Positions 1 to 14,088 of a DNA stretch of 54,276 bases are shown in pieces. Origin of the DNA: an uncultured Pseudomonadota bacterium. Lineage in GTDB: Bacteria > Pseudomonadota > Gammaproteobacteria > UBA6186 > Azoamicaceae. A model generated the notes under the pieces. The model was not told where the DNA came from. It saw only the letters and a list, made by a program, of their open reading frames with translations, and did not search any database. Positions within the stretch are counted from its first letter, which is position 1. Each line of letters starts with the position of its first letter. The stretch is from NCBI GenBank assembly GCA_902827015.1, contig CADEGZ010000001.1:1-54276 (forward strand). The letters are read 5' to 3'. The translations under genes were made by a program, and so were the position numbers.

Positions 1-690
1 TTTAGTATTGTAAATAGTCAAATTCTTCCAAAATCTATACTCCAATTTCCTAACGTTTGCGCAATTAATTATCATGATTCGCTTCTTCCTAAATACGCAG
101 GGGTTAATGCCACATCATGGGCTATCTTAAACAACGAAAAGATTCATGGTATAAGCTGGCATAAAATGGAGGAAACGATAGACACTGGATCTATATTTAA
201 ACAACCTACATTTTATATCAAAGAGGATGAAACAGCTCTTAGCCTAAATTTAAAATGCCATATTCATGCCTTAGAGTCATTTAAAAAACTTATTCAAGAG
301 CTTGCTGGAAATAAAAATGTTACTATATTAGGAAAAATACAAGATAAAAGAAATAGAAGCTACTTCGCTAGTCATCAAAAACCGACCAATTTAGGAATCA
401 TATCTTGGGATGATTCAGCTGAAAATATTGAAAGGCAGTTTAGAGCTTTATATTTTGGAGAATATCCAAATATTTTAACTAGTTTTAAAATAAAAATAGG
501 GGATCAGTTCTTTATTCCTAACAAATTAAAAATTTTAAATATTTCTTCAAGATGTACGGTAGGAACTGTAATAAATATTACAGCTACAGAGATGCAGATT
601 TCCACACAAACAAGAGATATAACACTTGCAAATTTTAAAAATACTAAAGGACAGATGGTTACAATTGATCAGATTAGAAGTTTTTCGTGC
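1..690 (+). other. Formyltransferase (F) loading domain of the NRPS. The catalytic N-terminal subdomain is cut by the window edge; the Fmt C-terminal-like subdomain is present.
   Basis: N-x-H (Asn codon 67-69, His codon 73-75) inside INYHDSLLPKYAGVN. Asp at 181-183 inside ETIDTGSI. This is the Asn/His/Asp catalytic set and the HxSLLPxxxG motif of Fmt/GART-type formyltransferases, as in the LgrA F domain. Confidence 0.8.
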
Positions 691-3600
691 CCTAGATTAA
701 AGTCGGGTTACAAATTAAAAAGTTTAAACAAAAAAATTACAAAAGAACTATATAAAATATCGAACACTATTTCTCGTTCAGAAGATTATTGGGTAAATAG
801 CCTATTGAACTCTAATTCATCGAATATGCCTTTTATGAACCAAACATTGAAAATGGAAGGTATTGAAAAGAAGCTGCAAAGTAAAAGCTCCAAAAAAAAA
901 ACTGATTCCAACGAACGCACATTTTTAACTATAAAGAATTACAATATTGATACAGAAAACCAAATTTATTCTTTTTGTAATGTTATTCTTGCGGCTTTTG
1001 TTATTTATTTTTATCGTATTGGAAACAACTCTGATTTTACTTTTGGTTTTGTAAATTCTTTTCTCCAAAACATACCTAAATCTTTAAAACAGTTTTTTCC
1101 TAAATATGTCCCCCTAACATTTTCAATTAGTTCTTGTATGAAGATTATCCAATTAATAGAAGCCATACAAAAGAATATCGTAACTGCCGAAAAGAACAAG
1201 GCATATTTCAATGATTTACCAGTAAGAAACCAAGATGTCTTTAACGCATATACTACCCTGCCTATTGTAGTCAAGATTAGAAGTTCTCTCTCGAATAACA
1301 AATCAGAAGATGATAAATGTGTCGGTGCGTCTCTTTTATTGTATATCGATGAAATTAACCAGACATACGAGATAAAAACAAGAAATCTTCTAAGTTCAGA
1401 TTCTTTAAACTATGGGGTAGAACATATTCTTAAGAATATTCCTGAACATCTTAATAAAATAGTAGAACAGATACTTAAAAATCCAAACCAAATAATAGAA
1501 GAGATTCCCTTATTGCCAGAAAAAGAAAGCGAACAAGTATTAGTAGAGTGGAATGATACTGAAGTTTCTTATGAAGAAAATGGAGCTAAAACAATTATAC
1601 AGATTTTTGAGCAGCAAGTTGAGAAAACTCCAAACAACTTAGCTGCAATATATAATGATACAAAGCTGACGTACAACGAATTAAACAATAGAGCTAATCA
1701 ATTAGCTCATTATCTAAAAAGCCTTGGAGTAGGGCCTGATGTATTAGTTGCAATAATGATAGATCGTTCTCTTGATTTGATAATAGGAATACTTGGAATT
1801 TTAAAAGCGGGCGGGGCTTACGTACCTCTTGATCCGGGTTATCCAAATGAAAGACTTAAATTTATATTAGACGATACAGGAGTTCGCGTTCTCGTAACGC
1901 GAAAGGATATAGTAAAAACAAAAGAAAAATTCACAAAGAATGCGCTCCAGGCATATTATAAAGGCACAGTAGTCGTGCTTGATACAAAAGAAATGAAAGA
2001 GATGCTTGCGATCCAAAGTGTTAGTAATCCGCCTTCTTTTGTTATGCCGCAGAACCTTGTTTATGTGATCTACACTTCTGGCAGTACAGGAAAGCCTAAA
2101 GGAGTTATGGTAACACATGGCGGGCTTAGTTATTATATGAACCATTCCAAGAAAACCTATAGTTTATATAACGGATCCTCTCTACTACATTCTTCTATAG
2201 CCTTTGATATGTACATAAAGTCTATTTTTCTACCTCTTATAGTTGGCAATTCAATTTATATAATTTCCACTAATTCTATTGATGCATTGGCAAAAATGCT
2301 TGAAGAGCATGAATGTATTGGTTTACTTGAGCTTACCCCTGCGCATCTAAAAATTTTGAAAGATCAAATTATTAGAAAGTCTATACCAAAGCAAAAATGT
2401 AATCTGATCGTCGGAGGAGAAAATTTATTAGTAGATGACATAAATCTTTGGTTACCGATTTTGCCAGAGGCGTTTATTTTTAACGAGTATGGTCCCACTG
2501 AGACAACGATTGGTTGCTGTCTGTTTCAGTTGAATAATAACAATTTTTCATCATCAATGTCTATTCCCATAGGGCGTCCGATTTCAAATACGCAGATTTA
2601 TATTTTAGATTCAAATCTTAATCCAGTTCCTATACTTGTTCCTGGAGAAATCTATATAGGAGGAGTAGGACTTGCTCGAGGATATTTAAGTCGTCCAGAC
2701 TTAACTGCCGAGAAGTTTATACCTAATCCTTTCTTTAATAAAAAGAACTTAGACGGAACTCAAACAACTGCCAGTCTAGCCCAATCATTGAGACTTTATC
2801 GTACCGGAGATCTGGGCCGTTTCTTACCGGATGGTAACATTGAATTCTTGGGGCGCATTGACGATCAAGTAAAGATTAGAGGTTTTAGAATAGAGCTTGG
2901 AGAAATTGAATCTATTCTAAGCACTTATAGTGATATTAGCCAAGCTTTGGTAATGGCAAGAGAAGATAAGCCAGGATATAAACAATTAGTTGCTTACTTA
3001 GTACCAGAGCAAAAGATTAGTGCTTCTTTAAGTGTAGCAGATAAATTTAGCTCCACTGCTAAAGGATCATTCTCTATTTTACATGGAGAGGCAGCCTTAT
3101 CATTAATAGAAGATTTAAGAAAACATCTTTCTCTTAGCTTGCCAGACTATATGGTCCCGGCATTCTTTGTATTTCTTGATAGAATGCCCCTAACTCTAAA
3201 CGGTAAGATAGATAAGAAATCTCTTCCTGCTCCTAATTTAAGTTTGGAAAGAATAAGAGATAGTTATGTAGCCCCTACTAATGAAATAGAAAAAACGCTT
3301 ATTTCGATCTGGAGTGAAGTGTTAAGGATAGATGCGGATAAAATTAGTATTCATGATAATTTCTTTAGGTTAGGTGGTGATTCTATTATTAGTATACAGC
3401 TTACATCTAAAGCTCAAAATACAGGGATTTATTTTGCCGTTAAAGATATTTTTAGTTTTCCAACGATCGCGGGATTAGCTTTAATCGCTACAAAAAAAGT
3501 AGCTAGAGAAAATACTAATCAGTTGATCTCTTTGGCGAAGCCTTTTCAAGGTGGAGTGACCAGCAATATTCCACTGACACCTATTCAACACTGGTTCTTT

Positions 3601-6600
3601 GCGCAAGACTTAAATAATAGAAATCATTATAATCAATCTTCAATACTTTTATTATCTTCCTCTGTTGATTTTTCATTACTCAAAAAATCGTTTAATTTCT
3701 TAATTAAACATCATGATCTTTTGAGATGTAGGTATGCTAAGCATAAAAAGAACAATGGAAATAATTGGGAACAAATTGCCTTAGGGATAGATGAAGAGAA
3801 TATTTCTTCAATTTGGTCAGAAATTGATTTAAAGGATGTGTGTGATCAAGATTTAACTGAAGCCATAGAGAAGCAGTCAAGTAAAATACAGGCAAGCTTG
3901 AATATAGAATCGGGTCCTTTATTAAGAGCGGTTCTTTTTAACTGTGGGAAAACTAGAACAGCAAGGCTCCTTATAGTCATCCATCATCTTGTTATAGATG
4001 GTGTATCATGGCGGATCTTACTTGAGGATTTAGAAAGCATTTATAAACGCTTAAAAGAGGGTTTGAATTTTTCTGATATTTCTAAAATATATAGGAAGAG
4101 CCATTCTTATGAACAGTGGTCTAATGCTTTAATAAAATACGCTCCTCAATCCAGCGTGCTTAAAAAACAAATTCCTTATTGGAAAGCAATAGAACAACGA
4201 TGTAGAAGAATTACACTACCAAAAGATTTTAAAGAACAAAAAACGGAGAGCATAAGCAGTAATAACTCATTGCGTTCAGTGGTTTTGTCTTTAAATGAAG
4301 AAGAAACTAAATTTCTTCTTCAAAGTGTACCCAAAGCCTATAGAACGGAAATCAATGATATTCTTTTAACAGCAGTGACGCTTGCTATAGGGGATTGGAC
4401 TGGAAAGTATGAAATAAGTCTCTCATTAGAAGGGCATGGTAGAGAAGATATAGGGTTTGACATAGACATATCAAGAACAATTGGTTGGTTTACTACAGTA
4501 TTTCCTGTTTATCTTGACTTGAAGAGCAGTGTAAGAATTCAAGAGACTAAAGACATTACTGATATTAACCTAGAAAAAGCTATTAAAAAAGTCAAAGAAG
4601 AAATTAGAAAAATTCCAAATAAAGGTATTGGGTATGGTGTTCTTGCTTATTTAAACAAAAGCTTAAGTAAGAAAAATAATGTTAATGCTGAAAATCAGCA
4701 GCCTATAAGCTTTAATTATTTGGGCCAATGGGACAATATTTTGCAGAAAGAGGGGCTATTTAGCTTTGCTGCTGAATCAAGCAGAGAAAATATATCAAAA
4801 GAAAATAAAGATCCATATCTTTTAAACATTAATAGCGAGATAAAGCAAGGTATTTTTAGTATTTCTTTTGGTTATAATAGTCTTGATTACAAAAAAGAAA
4901 CTATAGAAAAGGTTGGTAATTACTTTATCTCAAGGCTTAAGCAAATCATTAATCATTGCACGATTGAAGGTGCCTATGGATATACATCTTCAGATTTTTC
5001 TCTGATAAATTTGTCTCAACAATCTATTAATACTAATTTTGCCAGCATTAAAGGGATAGAAGATATTTACCCGCTCACTCCAATGCAATCAGGACTTTTA
5101 TTCCAATCTCTATATACACCTGATTCGGACGCTTATTTTGTACAAAGTATTTTTGAACTGATGGGAGTAGATAAACAAGTTTTTCAGCTAAGCTGGCAAA
5201 AGGTAAGTGACCATCATCCCATTTTAAGAACCGGAATAGTATGGGAAAATTTAGATGAACCGGTTCAATACGTTCTTGATCGGGCAAAAGTAGTTTTTGA
5301 GGAATATAATTTAGAGTTGGAAGAAATTAGTAGTAAACAACTTAAACTTGATGAGATTATTCAAAAAGATAGAAAGAAAGGTTTTAATTTAAGCAAAGCC
5401 CCTCTTTTTAGGATAATTCTAGTTAGTTTTTCTGAAAATAAACATTATATGATTTGGAGTCAAAGCCATATATTAACTGATGGATGGAGTACTCCTATTA
5501 TTCTTGGAGATTTTCTTAAAACTTACAGAGAAATCAAAAAAGGAAAGAGAGTAAATGAAATATCACTTACAACAAGGAACCCTTACAGAGAATATATAGC
5601 GTGGCTTAAAGAACAAGACAATACTAAAGCAGAAGCCTTTTGGAAAGAATACTTAGGAGGCATAAGTGGGCCTACAAAATTGAGTCTTAAAGATACCATA
5701 AATCTAAAAGAATACTCAAAAGAAGCGATAATAAATGATTACTTTACACATACAATGAATCTTTCAGAAGAAATCACAGAGAAAATACAAAATTTTGCAA
5801 GGAATAATAATTTTACTTTAAATACTGTAATTCAAGGAACAATTGCTACAATACTTAAAAAGTATACTCAAAAAGAAGAGATAATACTGGGCATTACTGT
5901 GTCTGGAAGAACTGTGCCAATAGAAGGCATTGAGGATATGGTAGGACTTTTTATTAACACTCTTCCATTAAGACTAAATTTTAAAGAGAATGAAAGTATT
6001 ATTTATTTCCTTCGAAGATTGCAACACAATACTCAAAATATAAATGAGTATGCATATTCATCATTAGCTCAAATACAATCTTGGTCAGGGCTCAATGATA
6101 CAAAAGGAGGATTGTTCGATGTTCTTCTTGTTTTCGAAAATTATTATATAGGTGAAGAAGCAAAAAGAGAAACCAGTTTGGATAATAATGATAATAATTT
6201 ACATGTTAGATTCTTAAAAGAAATAGAAAAAGCAGAATATCCCTTGAATATCAAAGTGATACCAGGTGAGAAAATATGCATGGAATTTGGCTATAAAATA
6301 ACACATTTCAATGAACAGACAATTCAAAGACTATCTTCGCATTTTCAAGAATTAATAACAGAACTAACAAATAATTCAGGTAAGAGTATTAATGATCTTT
6401 CTCTTCTAACTGAGCAAGAAAAGGATCAAATGCTAATAAAGTGGAATGAAACGGATGTTGTTTATCGAGAAATTGCTCAACACGAAACAATCATCCAGCT
6501 TTTTGAGAGGCAAGCTCAGAAGACACCGAACAATGTTGCTATAGTATATAATGAGAGACAATTGACTTATAAGCAACTAAATGAAAAAGCTAATCAATTA

Positions 6601-9600
6601 GCTCATTATCTAAGAAGACTTGGGATAGGACCTGGAGTACTCGTCGCAATAATGGTAGCTCGATCTCTGGATTTGATTATAGGCTTGCTTGGAATTGTAA
6701 AAGCAGGTGGAGCTTATGTACCTCTTGACCCAGATTATCCAAATGAAAGACTTAAGTTTATGTTAGAGGACACTAGGGCAAAAGTGCTCGTAACACAAGA
6801 AGAAATAGTAAGAGTAAAAGAAGAATTTGTAAAGAAAGAACTCCAGACATATTATAAAGGCACAATAGTCGTGCTTGATACAAAAGAAATGAAAGAAATG
6901 CTTTCAATTCAACGTGTTAATAATCTGCCCTCTATTGTTATGCTACATGATCTTGCTTATGTGATCTACACTTCCGGTAGTACAGGGAGACCTAAGGGAG
7001 CTGTGATTCAGCATAAATCTCTTATCAATTTAATATTTTGGGTTAATAATACTTTCGATGTTGGTGTCAAAGATAGAATTTTATTTGTAACTTCGATATG
7101 TTTTGATCTGTCTGTTTACGATATTTTTGGTATTTTAATAGCTGGCGGATCGATTCAAATTGCGTCAAGGGATGAAATAAAAGATCCTGATAAACTTCTG
7201 CAATTATTAAATCGTCAACCAATTACATTTTGGGATTCGGCACCAGCTATTTTAAATCAGTTAATGAATGTGATTAATGCTAATAATCATCTTTGCAAAA
7301 GTAACCACCTTAGGTTAATTTTTCTGAGTGGAGATTGGATACCTATTAATCTCCTTAGGCATATCAAGAACTATTTTAGCAATGCACAGATTGTAAGTTT
7401 AGGAGGCGCCACAGAAGCTACCATATGGTCAAATTTTTATAGTGTTACAACGATGAACCCCGCATGGGCAAGTATTCCTTATGGAAAACCAATCTCCAAT
7501 ACTCAATATTATATATTGGATTCAAATCTTAATCCAGTTCCTATACTTGTTCCTGGAGAAATCTATATAGGTGGGTTAGGGCTAGCTTCTGGATATTTAG
7601 GTCGTCCAGATTTGACCGCTGAAAAGTTTATTCCTAATCCTTTCTTTAATAAAAAGAACTTAGACGGAGGAGCACGAAAAGTTAATAGTGTAGTCCAGCC
7701 ACTAAGGCTTTATCGTACGGGAGATCTGGCCAGATTTTTGCCGGATGGTAACATAGAGCTTTTGGGACGCATTGACGATCAAGTGAAGATTAGAGGTTTT
7801 AGAGTAGAACTTGGAGAAATTGAATCTATTCTAAGTGCTTATAGTGATATTAGCCAAGCCTTGGTAATTGCAAGAGAAGACAAACCAGGATATAAACAAT
7901 TAATTGCTTACTTGGTACCAGACCAAAAAATTAGTGCTACTTTAAATGTAGCGGATACATTTATTTCCACTTCTAAAGAAGCCTTCTCTGTTTTACAAGG
8001 AGAATTTGCTTTATCAATAATAGAAGATTTAAGAAAACATCTTTCCCTTAGCTTACCAGATTATATGATCCCAGCATTCTTTGTATTTCTTGATAAAATG
8101 CCCCTAACTCCAAACGGTAAAATAGATAAAAAATCCCTTCCAGCCCCTGATTTAAGTTTGGAAAGAGTGGGAGATAGTTATGTAGCCCCTACTAATGAAA
8201 TAGAAAAAACACTTACTTCAATCTGGAGTGAAGTGTTGAGGATAGATGCGAATAAAATTAGCATTCATGATAATTTTTTTAGGTTAGGTGGACAGTCACT
8301 TTTTGCAACTCAAGTAGCATCTAGAATGAGAAATATATTTATTACAGAAATCTCACTTCGTTTGTTGTTTGAGTACCCTACTATTGCTGCTTTAGGAAAA
8401 GAGATATCGAAAATCATTGATAGTAGAATGGATAAGGATTACAATTCAGCTAATGAAGCCATTCCTCTAATTACTACCTCGTCTGCCAGACCGAAACGTA
8501 TACCTCTTTCCTTTGCACAAAATAGGCTTTGGTTTTTAAACCAATTAATGCCAGGAATTCCTCTTTATAATGTACCAACAGTATTGAAGCTTGTTGGCAG
8601 TTTGAATGTGGCTTGCTTAGAAAGAGCACTTAATGCTTTAATAGTTCGCCATGAAATACTTAGAACAGTGTTTCCTTATATTGATGAAGAAGCCTGTCAA
8701 CTCGTCCTTCCTGAACTTAGTATTGAGATAATAGAAGAGACTATTAATGATAAAAGTTCTTTAGTGAAACTAGCTAAAGAGGAATCAAATATTATATTTA
8801 ATCTAGCTACAGGACCTTTACTTAAAGTAAGGCTCGTATTTTTCTTAGATAAAAACTGTGAAGAAAAAGATCAGGAAAAGAGTGAGTATTTTCTTTTCAT
8901 AACCATGCATCATATAATAACTGACGGTTGGTCTGAGGCGATTTTCTTTAAAGAGCTAGCCACTCTTTACAATCATTACCTAAAAGAAAAAAATGGTAAA
9001 TCTTGCCTGGAAGATTTTGTTTTACCTAATTTATCTTTCCAATATGCAGATTATACTCTCTGGCAGAGAAATTGGCTTAAAGGAAAGATCTTTGAAGATG
9101 AATTATCTTACTGGAAAACCCAGCTTGAAGTGCTTCCAGAATTTATCCAATTGCCAACGGATAAAATAAGGCCTAAAGAGTTAAGTTATGAAGGAGGAAT
9201 TTATAATTTTACTTTGCCAAAAAACATAAGTGAAAAAATAAGAACTTTATCTGAAAAATCAGGAACAACAATGTTCATGACAATGCTGGCAATATTTCAG
9301 GTGTTTCTGTATAAAATATCAGGTCAAGATGATATAGTAGTTGGTACCCCTGTGGCAGGTAGACATTTTAAGGAATTAGAAGGTTTAATTGGATTCTTTG
9401 TAAATACTTTAGCTATTAGAACAAGATTTGAAGGAACAAAAGGTGATCTACAAACTTTTATTAATATTCTAGAAAAGGTAAAGAATACTATCTTGGAAGG
9501 TTATAGGCATCAGAATATCCCTTTTGAACAATTAGTAGATCACTTAAACATTACTAGAACGCTAAATAGGAATCCGGTATTCCAAATCATGTTTACTTAT

Positions 9601-12600
9601 GAGAGTAAGATAAACATTATTATAGAACAAGAATCGTTTGTTCTAAACAATATTAAACTTATGCCATTCGACTCAATAAATGCATATTCTATATCCCAAT
9701 TTGATTTAAGTGTCCATAATTATGAGTCTGATGAAGGAATGAATATAAAATTTGTGTATTCAAAAGATATTTGGACTGAACAAGCAATTCAAAAACTATC
9801 TTCGTATTTTAAAGAGTTAATAACAACTTTGGCATATAACCCAGAAAAAAATATTAATGATCTTTCCTTGTTAACAGAAGAAGAAAAAGAGCAAATGTTA
9901 GTAAAGTGGAATAATACTGGTTTTTATCAAAAAACTAATCAATATAAAACAATTATACAACTTTTTGAGCAACAAGTTGAGAAGACTCCAAACAATATAG
10001 CTGTCGTATATAATGATACGCATCTGACATACAAAAAACTAAATGAAAAAGCTAATCAATTAGCTTATTATCTAAGAAATCTTGGAGTAGGGCCTGATGC
10101 ACCAGTTGCAATAATGGTAGATCGATCTTTAGATTTAATTACAGGGCTAGTTGGGATTTTAAAAGCTGGCGGAACTTATGTACCTCTTGACCCAGATTAT
10201 CCAAATGAAAGACTGAGATACATGTTAGAAGACAGTAGAGCAAAAGTACTCGTAACGCAAGGAGAAATGTTAAGATCAAAAGAAAAATTTGTAAATAAAG
10301 AACTCGAAACATATTATAAAGGTACAATAGTGGTACTTGATACAAATCAAGTCAAAGAATTAATTGCAATACAAAGTGTTAATAATCCACCTTCTTTTGT
10401 TATGCCGCAAAACCTCGTTTATGTAATCTATACTTCTGGCAGTACAGGGAAGCCCAAGGGAGTTATGGTAACCCACAAAGGGCTTACGAACCTTGTTAAA
10501 GCCCAGATGAAAGCATTTGGCATCAAAGAAAAGAGTAAGGTTATACAATTTGCATCTATTAGCTTTGATGCTGCGGCATCAGAAATATTTACCGTTATCG
10601 CTAAAGGCGCGACATTATATTTACTATCTAAAAACACTATAAAAGACAAAGCTCTTTTTTCTAACTTTTTACTTAAGAGTAAGTGCAATCTTTCTACTTT
10701 TCCTCCAAGTTTTTTAAGTAAGATGGACCCAAAAGAAATGAGGCAAATGAAAACTATAATAACTGCTGGTGAAATGTTAACAAGTCACCTCGCAAAAGAA
10801 TGGATTCAAAATAGATGTTTAATTAATGCATATGGTCCTACAGAAACCACCGTAGGATGTACTTCATTTGAGATCAATTCAATGACTAAATATAACAATC
10901 TAGATTTGGTTTCTATTCCTATAGGTTGGCCGATTTCAAATACACAGATTTATATTTTAGATTCAGATCTTAATCCAGTTCCTATACTTGTTCCTGGAGA
11001 AATCTATATAGGAGGAGTAGGACTTGCTCGAGGATATTTAGGTCGTCCAGACTTAACTGCCGAGAAGTTTATACCTAATCCTTTTTTTAATAAAAAGAAT
11101 TTAGATGGAGCACAAACAACTGATAATCTAATCCAATCATTAAGACTTTACCGTACGGGAGATCTAGCCCGATTTTTACCAAATGGTAACATTGAATTTT
11201 TGGGACGCATTGACGATCAAGTGAAGATCAGAGGCTTTAGGATAGAGCTCGGAGAAATTGAATCTATTCTAAATGCTTATAGTAATATTAGCCAAGCCTT
11301 GATAATTGCAAGAGAAGACAAGCCAGGATATAAACAATTAGTTGCTTACTTAGTAGCAGATCAGAAGATTAGTGCTTCTTTAAGTATAGCAGATACATTT
11401 AGTTCTACTTCTAAAGAATCATTCTCTGTTTTACATGGAGAGGCAGCTTTATCATTAATAGAAGATTTAAGAAAACATCTTTTTCTTAGTTTACCAGACT
11501 ATATGGTCCCGGTATTCTTTGTATTTCTTGATAGAATGCCCCTAACTCCAAACGGTAAGATAGATAAGAAATCCCTGCCTGCTCCTGATTTAAGTTTAGA
11601 AAGGTTAAGAGATAATTATGTAGACCCTAGCAATGAAATAGAAAAAACGCTTGTTTCAATCTGGAGTGAAGTGTTGAAAATAGATGTGGATAAAATTAGC
11701 ATGCATGATAATTTCTTTAGGTTAGGTGGCGATTCTATCATTAGTATACAACTTGCATCTAAAGCTCAAAATAGAGGGATTTATTTTGCTGTTAAAGATA
11801 TTTTTAGTTTTCCAACGGTCGCAGGACTAGCTTTAATTGCCAAGAAAAAAGTAGCTAAAGAAAATACTAATAAACTTATCTCATTGGCAAAGCCTTTGCA
11901 AGGCGAGGTGACTGGCAATATTCCACTGATACCTATTCAATATTGGTTCTTTGAGCAATGCTTAAATAATATAAATCACTATAATCAATCTTCAATGCTT
12001 TTATTATCTTCCTCTGTTAATTTTTTGTTACTTAAAAAATCCGTTAATTTCCTAATTAACCATCATGATCTTTTAAGATGCAAATACATTAAGTATAAAA
12101 AGAACAAGGATTCTATTGATAATAAGATTAATAATACTAGGAAAATCCCTTTAAATAGTTGGGAACAAATTGCCTTAGGGATAGATGAAGAGAATATTTC
12201 TTCTATTTGGTCTGAAGTTAATCTAAAGGATGTGAATGACAAAGATTTAACTGATACCATAGAGAAGTATTCAAATAAAATACAAGCAAGCTTAAATATA
12301 GAATCGGGTCCTTTATTAAGAATCGTTCTTTTTAATTGTGGGGAAAATAGAAGAGCGAGACTTCTGATAGTTATCCACCATCTTGTGGTAGATGGGATAT
12401 CATGGAGGATCTTACTTGAGGGTCTAGAAAGCATTTATAAATTCTTAAAAGAGGGTTTCAATTTTTCTGACATTTCTAAAACGTATAGGAAGAGCCATTC
12501 TTATAAGCAGTGGTCTAATGCTTTACTAAAATACGCTCAATCCAGTGAGCTTAAAAAACAAATTTCTTATTGGAAAGCAATAGAACAAAGTTGCAGGGGA

Positions 12601-14088
12601 ATTACACTACCCAAAGATTTTAAAGAACAAAAAATGAAGAGTATAAGCAGTAATAATCCATTGGGTTCAGTGATCTTGTCTTTAAATGAGGAAGAAACTA
12701 AATCACTTCTTCAAAGTGTACCCAAAGCTTATAGAACAGAAATTAATGATATTCTTTTAACAGCGTTGACGCTTGCGATAGGAGATTGGACTGGAAAGTA
12801 TGAAATAAGTCTCTCATTAGAAGGGCATGGTAGAGAAGATATAGGCTTTGATATAGACATATCAAGGACAATTGGTTGGTTTACTACAGTATTTCCTGTT
12901 TATCTTGATTTAAAGAGCAGTGTAAGAATTCAAGAGACTAAAAACATTACTGATATTAACTTAGAAAAAGCTATTAAAACAGTCAAAGAAGAGATTAGAA
13001 AGATCCCAAATAAAGGTATTGGATATGGTGTTTTAGCCTATTTAAACAAAAACAAGAATAATGTCAGTGCTGATTTTCAACTGCCTATAAGCTTTAATTA
13101 TTTAGGTCAATGGGACAATATTTTGCAGAAAGAAGGGCTATTTACTTTTGCCATTGAACCGAGTGGGGAGAATATATCAAAAGAGAATAAAAATCCATAT
13201 TTTTTAAACATTAATAGTGAAGTAAAGCAAGGTATTTTTAGTATTTTATTTGATTATAATAGTCTTGACTACAAAAAAGAAACTATAGAAAAGGTTGGTA
13301 ATTACTTTATTTCAAGACTTAAGCAAATCATTAAGCATTGCACAATTGAAGGTGCTAATGAATATACATCTCTAGAATTTGATTTGATAGTACCTTTTAA
13401 TTATACTACCAATAGTAAAAAAAATCAATTTATATTTTTTATTCATCCAATAGGAGGTGAACTACACTGGTATAACACATTAGCAAAAAAATTATCTAGC
13501 ACTTATGCTTCATACGGAATTAAAAGTCCTTTTTTAGAATCTGATTTGGTTGCCATATCAAACATGGAAGAGTTGGCGGATAATTATACAAAACAAATAT
13601 ATAAAGTACAAAATTCTGGGCATTATACAATTGTTGGATGGTCATTTGGTGCAATTATTGCTTTTGAAGTAGCTAAAAACTTGATCCTTAAAGGGCATAT
13701 TGTAAGTTTAATAATAATTGATCAATCTTCTTATTTACCTAAACAAAATAGCAATACAATATCTATGAAAAATAAAGAAATTATAAATATTAAATCTGAA
13801 GAAAACACTACTTTGGTAGATTACCGTAAAATAAAAGCTAATCTCCTTAATAAGGATCTTTTACTAAGGTATATCTTAAAAGGTAAAGTAAATAATATCT
13901 ATTTATTTAAATCAACAGAATTGCAAGAATATTGTAATATTAATAAATTAGATCCAAAATATTTAGGATGGAATTTTTATTGTGATAGCATTGAAACTTT
14001 TACTATACATGGAAATCATTATTCTATTTTACTTGAATCTAGCGTTAACTTTATAGCATCTACAATCTTGAACGGCTTTATTGAATAA
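1..14088 (+). CDS. Non-ribosomal peptide synthetase, 5'-partial (continues upstream of window). Domain order: F(formyltransferase) - C-remnant - A-T-E - C-A-T - C-A-T-E - TE
   Basis: Frame 1 is open from nt 1, with no stop before the tool's ATG at 166. Nt 1-190 already encode ..[23 protein letters not shown]..IDTG (formyltransferase), so the true start lies upstream. Core motifs read in the translation: A3 [16 protein letters not shown] (~2056), [16 protein letters not shown] (~6951), [16 protein letters not shown] (~10405); A7/A8 [19 protein letters not shown][IV]ELGEIE three times; T GGDSI (~3373), GGQSL (~8288), GGDSI (~11727); E [10 protein letters not shown] (~3982) and [10 protein letters not shown] (~12376), both with EGHGRE, RTIGWFT and [17 protein letters not shown] (~5467) and HHIITDGWS (~8909); TE GWSFG (~13636) plus HGNHYS. 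Confidence 0.93.
   Translation, partial: [4695 protein letters not shown]
781..1500 (+). other. Degenerate C-terminal half of a condensation domain, with no HHxxxDG, lying between the F and first A domain
   Basis: EDYWVNSLL.. then ..[29 protein letters not shown].. resembles C-domain motifs C4/C5 (compare AAFxxLLxRYxGxxDIxFGxPxxxR in intact C domains of this cluster). No HHxxxDG-like string occurs between the Fmt region and the A domain. Confidence 0.5.
1501..2115 (+). repeat. Intragenic direct repeat family R1 (C-A linker to A3), copy 1
   Basis: Encodes ..[105 protein letters not shown]. It aligns by eye with copies at 6394-7005 and 9859-10460. Confidence 0.7.
2578..4985 (+). repeat. Intragenic direct repeat family R2 (A6-A10 + T + E), copy 1, about 2.4 kb
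   Basis: Long runs are identical at nucleotide level to 10930 onward, for example ccgatttcaaatac.cagatttatattttagattca.atcttaatccagttcctatacttgttcctggagaaatctatataggaggagtaggacttgctcgaggatattta. The similarity continues through [10 protein letters not shown] and the whole E domain. Confidence 0.8.
6394..7005 (+). repeat. Intragenic direct repeat family R1, copy 2
   Basis: Same protein string as copy 1 with scattered substitutions (..[64 protein letters not shown]..). Confidence 0.7.
7489..8290 (+). repeat. Intragenic direct repeat family R2, short copy (A6-A10 only), about 0.8 kb
   Basis: ..aatcttaatccagttcctatacttgttcctggagaaatctatatagg.. and the following A7-A10 coding sequence match copies 1 and 3. 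Similarity ends at the T domain (GGQSL here versus GGDSI). Confidence 0.75.
9859..10460 (+). repeat. Intragenic direct repeat family R1, copy 3
   Basis: ..[77 protein letters not shown]. Confidence 0.7.
10930..13375 (+). repeat. Intragenic direct repeat family R2, copy 3, about 2.4 kb, with a small insertion
   Basis: Matches 2578-4985 through A6-A10, T and E. It carries an extra ..[18 protein letters not shown].. segment (~12105-12160) in the E domain. Confidence 0.8.
13420..14085 (+). other. Type I thioesterase (TE) release domain at the C-terminus of the plus-strand NRPS
   Basis: [15 protein letters not shown].., nucleophile elbow [15 protein letters not shown] (GxSxG), and C-terminal ..HGNHYSIL (catalytic His context). 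Confidence 0.8.

Follow-up and report, generated by a model that had tools for sequence, protein, structure and literature searches.

Three specificity cores on one adenylation-domain scaffold: a probable recombination mosaic in a nonribosomal peptide synthetase gene of an uncultured bacterium

Do the pieces of an adenylation (A) domain share a single history when several such domains sit in one gene? This question is raised by a nonribosomal peptide synthetase (NRPS) gene on the plus strand of contig CADEGZ010000001.1, from an uncultured bacterium of the Azoamicaceae. The window analyzed is the entire contig of 54,276 bp, and its parent metagenome-assembled genome (MAG) comprises 2.49 Mb in 296 contigs. 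A preliminary description noted that the three A domains of the gene have similar flanks around divergent cores, and read this as either replacement of the specificity-conferring subdomain or concerted evolution of the flanks. Each of these histories involves recombination, which the tests favor, and each has evidence behind it. The gene is very probably a mosaic put together by recombination along the ‘unit-and-linker’ lines of NRPSs.

The gene is a single uninterrupted frame of 4695 codons. From Pfam matches and motifs, its domain order is F(partial)-degenerate C-like-A1-T1-E1-C2-A2-T2-C3-A3-T3-E3-TE (F, formyltransferase; C, condensation; T, thiolation; E, epimerization; TE, thioesterase). 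The three modules (M1, M2 and M3) were aligned as proteins, back-translated to codons and compared in 20-codon sliding windows. Pairwise nucleotide identity is 0.65-0.92 in the left flank (from ~1519/6412/9877 to ~2104/7000/10462 in M1/M2/M3), drops within ~60 nt to 0.30-0.60 in the core, and is back at 0.77-0.98 from ~2572/7483/10924, where the right flank starts. The transitions are abrupt, and the flanks are far more alike than the pocket region between them. Breakpoints were located with a three-segment maximum-likelihood fit of identity, which is better than a uniform identity (twice the log-likelihood difference = 278-318). The left breaks lie at 2105-2129 (M1), 7001 (M2) and 10463-10487 (M3) and the right breaks at 2560-2598, 7509 and 10912-10950, respectively. 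The codon alignment and this fit thus confirm the pattern, and the coordinates first proposed for it were correct to within ~30 nt.

Overall, the left flank, which starts at the C-A linker and ends with motif A3, is 79-81% identical in nucleotides and 70-74% in amino acids among the three A domains. The right flank, which runs from the sequence SIPxGxPISNTQ (28 residues before A6) to FFRLGGxS in the T domain, is 87-91% identical in nucleotides. The flanks contain identical runs of up to 74 nt (2615/10967), 53 nt and 46 nt. ‘Near-identical’, the term originally applied to the flanks, overstates the likeness of the left one. The cores, with lengths of 153, 158 and 151 residues in A1, A2 and A3, share only 22-29% of their amino acids and have an overall nucleotide identity of 0.43-0.44.

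The breaks of the gene coincide with three conserved motifs: the end of A3, SIPxGxPISNTQ and FFRLGGxS. The right flank, initially thought to end near 3230, instead extends through A10 to FFRLGG(D/Q)S in the T domain, where the similarity of all three modules ends (3375/8289/11727). Directly after ~8290, the identity of M2 to M1 and M3 falls to 0.4-0.5, T2 being unlike T1 and T3. M1 and M3 remain 85-96% identical for 1.6 kb more through T and E, to ~4950/13335, with GGDSI-type T and HHLV(I/V)DG E motifs present in both T1-E1 and T3-E3. At the other end, a weaker similarity between M2 and M3 (0.70-0.78) begins upstream of the left segment, near 6290/9757. By sequence anchors at code positions 235 and 331, the core corresponds to approximately residues 200-347 of GrsA. 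Nine of the ten specificity-code positions (235-331) lie inside it in every module (2105-2559, 7001-7470 and 10463-10911). The tenth, the Lys 517 equivalent, is in the shared flank, so the view that the cores hold all pocket residues is right for all but this one. The features are listed in Table 1.

Table 1. Segments of the three A-domain modules and related features of the NRPS gene (positions in the window)
Feature	Position	Strand	Basis and remarks
NRPS gene	1..14088	+	Open reading frame; Pfam; motifs; 5' end truncated by contig start
M1 left shared segment (‘CA-A3 linker’ of Li 2024)	1519..2104	+	C-A linker to end of A3 YTSGSTGKPKG; 79-80% nt identity to M2/M3; dS 0.54-0.61
M1 specificity core	2105..2559	+	A3 end to ‘SIP’; code DMKEIGEIGK; shares 25-29% aa with the M2 and M3 cores
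M1 right shared segment (‘A6-T1 linker’)	2560..3375	+	‘SIPIGRPISNTQ’, A6-A10, first half of T to FFRLGG; 87-91% nt, 89% aa identity to M2/M3; dS 0.24-0.43
Youngest-looking M1-M3 tract	2599..2748 (counterpart ~10951-11100)	+	Directly 3' of core; includes the 74-nt identical run
T1(rest)-E1; second copy T3(rest)-E3 at 11728-13335	3376..4950	+	87% nt identity, dS 0.38
M2 left shared segment	6412..7000	+	Identity profile, maximum-likelihood breaks, dS
M2 specificity core	7001..7470	+	Code DLYDFSLIWK; 22-25% aa identity to the other cores
M2 right shared segment	7471..8289	+	Ends at FFRLGGQS
M3 left shared segment	9877..10462	+	Identity profile, maximum-likelihood breaks, dS
M3 specificity core	10463..10911	+	Code DASTIAAVGK; 22-29% aa identity to the other cores
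M3 right shared segment	10912..11727	+	Identity profile, maximum-likelihood breaks, dS

The flanks and cores also differ in synonymous divergence (dS; Nei-Gojobori). The left flank has values of 0.54-0.68 and the right flank 0.24-0.44, whereas the cores give values of at least 2.2 or are saturated and not computable. In trees of 48 A domains with SH-aLRT support, the three domains form one clade for the left flank (99.8) as well as the right (100). Forcing the three cores into one clade costs 195 log-likelihood units (p = 1.9e-39 in the approximately unbiased (AU) test), and the flank and core phylogenies are therefore in conflict. Without recombination, a single A domain would have been triplicated and its pocket, under positive or relaxed selection, would have changed rapidly, with the flanks held by their contacts to the C and T domains. 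The A3-A6 region is indeed generally the most variable part, with a median within-protein identity of 0.27 for the core vs 0.46 and 0.53 for the flanks. However, such a history is very improbable here, as saturation of synonymous sites is seen in the cores and is absent from the flanks, a common core clade is rejected, the cores are 46-63% identical to cores of other phyla vs 22-29% to their neighbors, and two of them have exact or near-exact codes in distant NRPSs. Rate variation was accordingly rejected on the AU test of the cores and their exclusive saturation. By the same token, the cores are not fast-evolved copies of each other, having closer relatives elsewhere.

These relatives lie in different parts of the A-domain family. 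The specificity codes were read from a hidden Markov model alignment of 1222 A domains. A1 carries DMKEIGEIGK and its relatives DMTK(I/V)GEVGK, with DMTKVGEVGK in P0010 and P0018. The A1 core is 52% identical in amino acids to P0010 and 51% to P0018 (52-63% over its closer relatives elsewhere), and sits with Asn-type cores within a starred clade of the core tree. The A2 core is 60-63% identical to those of P0018, P0141 and P0150 and belongs to a starred clade of 11. Its code, DLYDFSLIWK, is exactly matched in P0150 and P0151, the NRPSs of Clostridium saccharobutylicum and Vallitalea. The A3 core, with the code DASTIAAVGK, shares 46-47% of its residues with P0354 (code DASTIAAVCK) and P0298 (code DASTVAAVGK). 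The Stachelhaus codes are DLTKLGEVGK for Asn, DLYNLSLIWK for Cys and DASTVAAVCK for Tyr, and the predicted substrates are a diverged Asn type for A1, Cys-like for A2 and Tyr-like for A3. With Asn-type, Cys-like and Tyr-like relatives and core monophyly rejected, the proposal that the cores come from three different A-domain lineages stands. To call them unrelated is too strong, for although they fall in different specificity clades, they are still homologous pieces of A domains. Elsewhere in the same genome, no A domain exceeds 48% identity to these flanks, and flank identities above 60% occur in none of the other A-domain pairs.

Chimeric domains could also be produced by an assembler if it merged reads from more than one gene or strain where the flanks repeat. 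In favor of this, the MAG is split into 296 contigs, the flanks contain identical runs of 46-74 nt, and contigs in the Logan collection end at those repeats. Nevertheless, this explanation can be almost entirely discounted. Independent assembly of four wastewater or activated-sludge runs from three studies gave Logan contigs that agree exactly with the gene across five of its six junctions: both in M1 (1971-2644, 1992-2355 and 2440-2619), the right one in M2 (7296-7638 and 7462-7720) and both in M3 (10242-10996). The M2 left junction (~7001) is spanned by none among the Logan contigs listed. Moreover, a misjoin at a flank would reorder modules rather than create divergent cores, and the frame of 4695 codons stays open end to end. 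A chimeric assembly was rejected on the identity of the independent contigs over these five junctions. Metagenomes of wastewater and activated sludge from at least three studies (2015-2024) also contain the gene at 100% identity.

We consider recombination at the motif boundaries highly probable as the mechanism. Where the core meets conserved DNA that encodes motifs, homologous recombination would have let the specificity unit and the scaffold follow separate histories. Both scaffold segments (C-A linker to A3, and pre-A6 to FFxxGGxS) would then have one recent ancestry in the three modules, and the piece from A3 to pre-A6, with nine of ten pocket residues, would derive from three A-domain lineages. 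Within recombination, we modestly prefer duplication and core import, with some conversion afterwards. Module 3 would be a copy of an ancestral A-T-E module whose core was of the Asn type, and the ancestral A domain up to the T motif would have been copied into module 2. The cores of modules 2 and 3 would have been supplied by other A domains, and later gene conversion may have kept parts of the flanks similar.

Several observations agree with this order of events. The nearest outside scaffolds, those of P0030 (module 3), P0018 and P0010, have Asn-type cores and are also closest to the A1 core. As the nearest scaffolds are thus the nearest relatives of the A1 core, A1 looks unrecombined. A2 and A3 combine the Asn-type-associated scaffold with cores whose nearest relatives have ordinary, distant flanks. 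The homology between M1 and M3 is unbroken through T-E at a dS of 0.38, and the core is therefore an island in ~3.4 kb of duplicated DNA.

There are also points that weigh against import after duplication. The GC content at third codon positions (GC3) of the cores equals that of the flanks, so any import must be old. With dS at 0.24-0.68, the flanks were not copied recently either. The informative sites of the left flank split about evenly among the three pairings (48/55/56), which fits repeated conversion at least as well as a single duplication. P0030, an F-domain NRPS of 3786 residues from Alphaproteobacteria bacterium 41-28, is collinear with the gene over 3,483 residues at 43% identity, and the flanks of the window gene show no position-for-position match to it, which is the expectation under concerted evolution. 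The substrate predictions depend on specificity codes. Finally, the collections searched yielded no donor, and no orthologue carrying another core in the corresponding place. Neither turned up among 40 relatives (best 62%), in genome_contigs (best 44%) or in metagenome_contigs (best 63%). Word-indexed searches with each core found no orthologue or donor, the best outside cores being 46-63% identical, and an exhaustive search with the A3 core, in which multi-domain proteins dominated the ranking, returned nothing close. Because the core GC3 is like that of the flanks and these collections hold no donor or orthologue, all the events must be old.

The same data invite an account by concerted evolution only, in which three A domains of separate origin had their flanks homogenized by intragenic conversion, selection removed tracts that entered the core, and nothing was imported. 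The sites behind the even left-flank pairings are clustered (runs test P = 0.013), as are those of the right flank, which divide 36/64/32 (runs test P = 0.03). The dS between M1 and M3 is 0.54 in the left vs 0.24 in the right flank (P = 0.001). A younger tract of 150 nt adjoins the core and has four mismatches, vs a flank average of 9% (scan P = 0.029). The flanks in the window are nearer to each other than to any P0030 flank, and in G013, a congeneric genome, left flanks group differently from right flanks. Continuing homogenization is further suited by the flanks of P0249 and P0067, which are 97-100% identical around cores of 22-29%. On the other hand, the collinearity of P0030 may reflect just domain order, since P0013 aligns similarly (42.8% over 2811 residues). 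The A1 core and scaffold have common nearest outside relatives, as expected if one core were native and the others not, and the homology of M1 and M3 is continuous through T-E, as after a module duplication. On balance, concerted evolution on its own is possible but somewhat doubtful, and duplication with core import and some later conversion remains our choice.

Mosaics of this kind are not confined to the window. Pairs with both flanks at least 65% and cores at most 35% identical occur in 21 of 330 multi-A NRPSs including the window gene (20 of 329 others), in a sample collected by core rather than flank similarity. In the 20 others, most left breaks follow A3 directly (median column 165), and right breaks occupy columns 315-343, from the SIPxG site to A6 (up to ~28 residues further), though the selection criterion favors these columns on both sides. 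A regression of core on flank identity over 1219 outside A domains was useless as an outlier test (r = -0.08 to 0.21). Its near-zero correlation is in line with widespread uncoupling.

Some mosaics are far more extreme than the window gene. In P0249 (7660 residues, ENA), seven A domains combine flanks of 97-100% identity with cores of 22-29%, and in P0067 the right flank is 100% identical around Gly-type and Asn-type cores. P0274, P0087 and P0275 belong here as well. The congeneric genome G013 has a mosaic NRPS cluster with seven A domains (L092/L093, G013:C58:38000-71900), and because its left and right flanks group differently, the two scaffold segments recombine independently there. P0030 has different codes from the window gene at all three positions, with its Asn-type core in module 3 rather than module 1.

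Relatives of the scaffold are found in G013, in P0030/P0032/P0038 and P0067 from Alphaproteobacteria MAGs, in P0013, and among Candidatus Megaera and Caedibacter matches. Outside G013, the bacteria concerned look protist-associated or intracellular. One could imagine the scaffold as a horizontally shared ‘chassis’ across bacterial classes, with units continually exchanged and flanks re-homogenized. We regard this as unlikely, but if true, it would be a second natural diversifying NRPS system after kahalalide, and one spanning bacterial classes.

Comparison with known systems places the gene among published cases. The partial exchange of A cores is the prevalent mode of NRPS diversification that spares the C-A linker and the A-T interface (Baunach 2021, PMC8097286). 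In the microcystin, Ahp-cyclodepsipeptide, polymyxin and hormaomycin synthetases, as in the window gene, part of the A core is exchanged while the C-A linker, the small C-terminal subdomain and the T interface stay intact. The detection in Baunach 2021 (PMC8097286) was likewise by sliding-window identity and tree conflict, but concerned orthologous clusters, often with a named donor, whereas here the compared units are paralogous modules of one gene.

For the kahalalide NRPSs of the intracellular symbiont Candidatus Endobryopsis kahalalidifaciens, Li 2024 (PMC11428043) described a CA-A3 linker, a specificity unit from A3 to an extended A6, an A6-T1 linker and a T-(E)-C ‘chirality unit’. All four unit-and-linker boundaries are seen in the window gene, whose D-type modules have a common T-E and whose L-type module diverges after FFRLGGxS. 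There are differences too. The case here is limited to one gene with three modules, from an unrelated bacterium of wastewater, vs 20 pathways, the flanks are older (dS 0.24-0.68), and the right boundary precedes A6 by 28 residues, not ~7. FFxxGGxS is itself a frequent natural recombination boundary and the XUT fusion point (Bozhüyük, 10.1101/2022.12.02.518901), and the similarity of the three window modules stops there. No A-subdomain exchange was seen in the data set of that study, whereas the window gene has both kinds of boundary.

The hotspots at which the gene breaks have already been used as cut sites for engineering (Thong 2021, PMC8616955). The preliminary description suggested that the gene offers natural breakpoints for A-domain engineering. 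Both the pattern and its engineering use are already published, and the gene is new in detail: its right boundary, its older flanks and its lineage. Such cut sites were reportedly used also by Crüsemann in 2013, in subdomain swaps of the hormaomycin type, and Kries in 2015 is said to have defined engineered swaps by the flavodoxin-like subdomain of GrsA-PheA. Like that subdomain, the window core is a contiguous piece (~140-150 residues) with nine of ten code residues. By sequence anchors, however, the window unit is longer (151-158 vs 139 residues) and starts ~15-20 residues earlier, at the end of A3, adding the preceding helix.

The gene is a clean three-way natural case of swapping just the pocket-bearing piece of the A domain, and gives independent support for the published cut sites from a low-GC, uncultured lineage. 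Three cores on one scaffold provide a matched set for testing how a scaffold tolerates foreign cores. Beyond this, the gene opens no new question. Judged by its sequence, every module would keep its C and T contacts while choosing a different amino acid.

In the gene, Pfam finds Formyl_trans_N/C, four Condensation, three AMP-binding, three AMP-binding_C, three PP-binding and one Thioesterase domain. The A domains are of the NRPS adenylation type of the ANL superfamily (PF00501 and PF13193, matched above the curated cut-off), whose fold is known from closely related solved structures, with motifs A3, A5, A6 and A10 and the Lys 517 equivalent, and match GrsA (1AMU; E = 1.6e-112). As in LgrA (PDB 5ES5, 6MFZ), the top solved relative of A1 (E = 8.5e-211), a formyltransferase domain precedes the first A domain, the arrangement of LgrA-type formylating initiation. 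In contrast to LgrA, a degenerate C-like stretch of ~240 residues lies between F and A1, and the F domain is incomplete at the contig end: Formyl_trans_N covers profile positions 89-170 of 181, the lost part corresponding to the contig start, and Formyl_trans_C is also matched. The product is predicted to be N-formyl-D-(Asn-like)-(Cys-like)-D-(Tyr-like).

Compared with the Asn-type code DMTKIGEVGK of its relatives, A1 has T239K and K278E (window 2206-2220 and 2329-2331), which resembles the swapping of a charge pair within the pocket, and for this reason its substrate may be other than Asn. A minus-strand NRPS on the same contig (50435-54274) carries the canonical Cys code DLYNLSLIWK, with a core only 39% identical to that of A2. 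All three A domains of the mosaic gene contain an insert of ~30 residues in the small C-terminal subdomain, between A8 and A9 (~3019-3111, ~7933-8025 and ~11371-11463 in A1, A2 and A3). It is missing from most relatives, whose matches split into query residues 1-150 and 180-269.

The contig has a GC content of ~31% vs 37.5% for the genome. Elsewhere in the genome, contigs C4 and C5 (P0362 and P0363) encode BipA, which scores 883 bits over 604 residues against solved BipA chains, and GlmS, which scores 753 bits. The solved BipA chains are presumably enterobacterial, and the matches of both host proteins look gammaproteobacterial.

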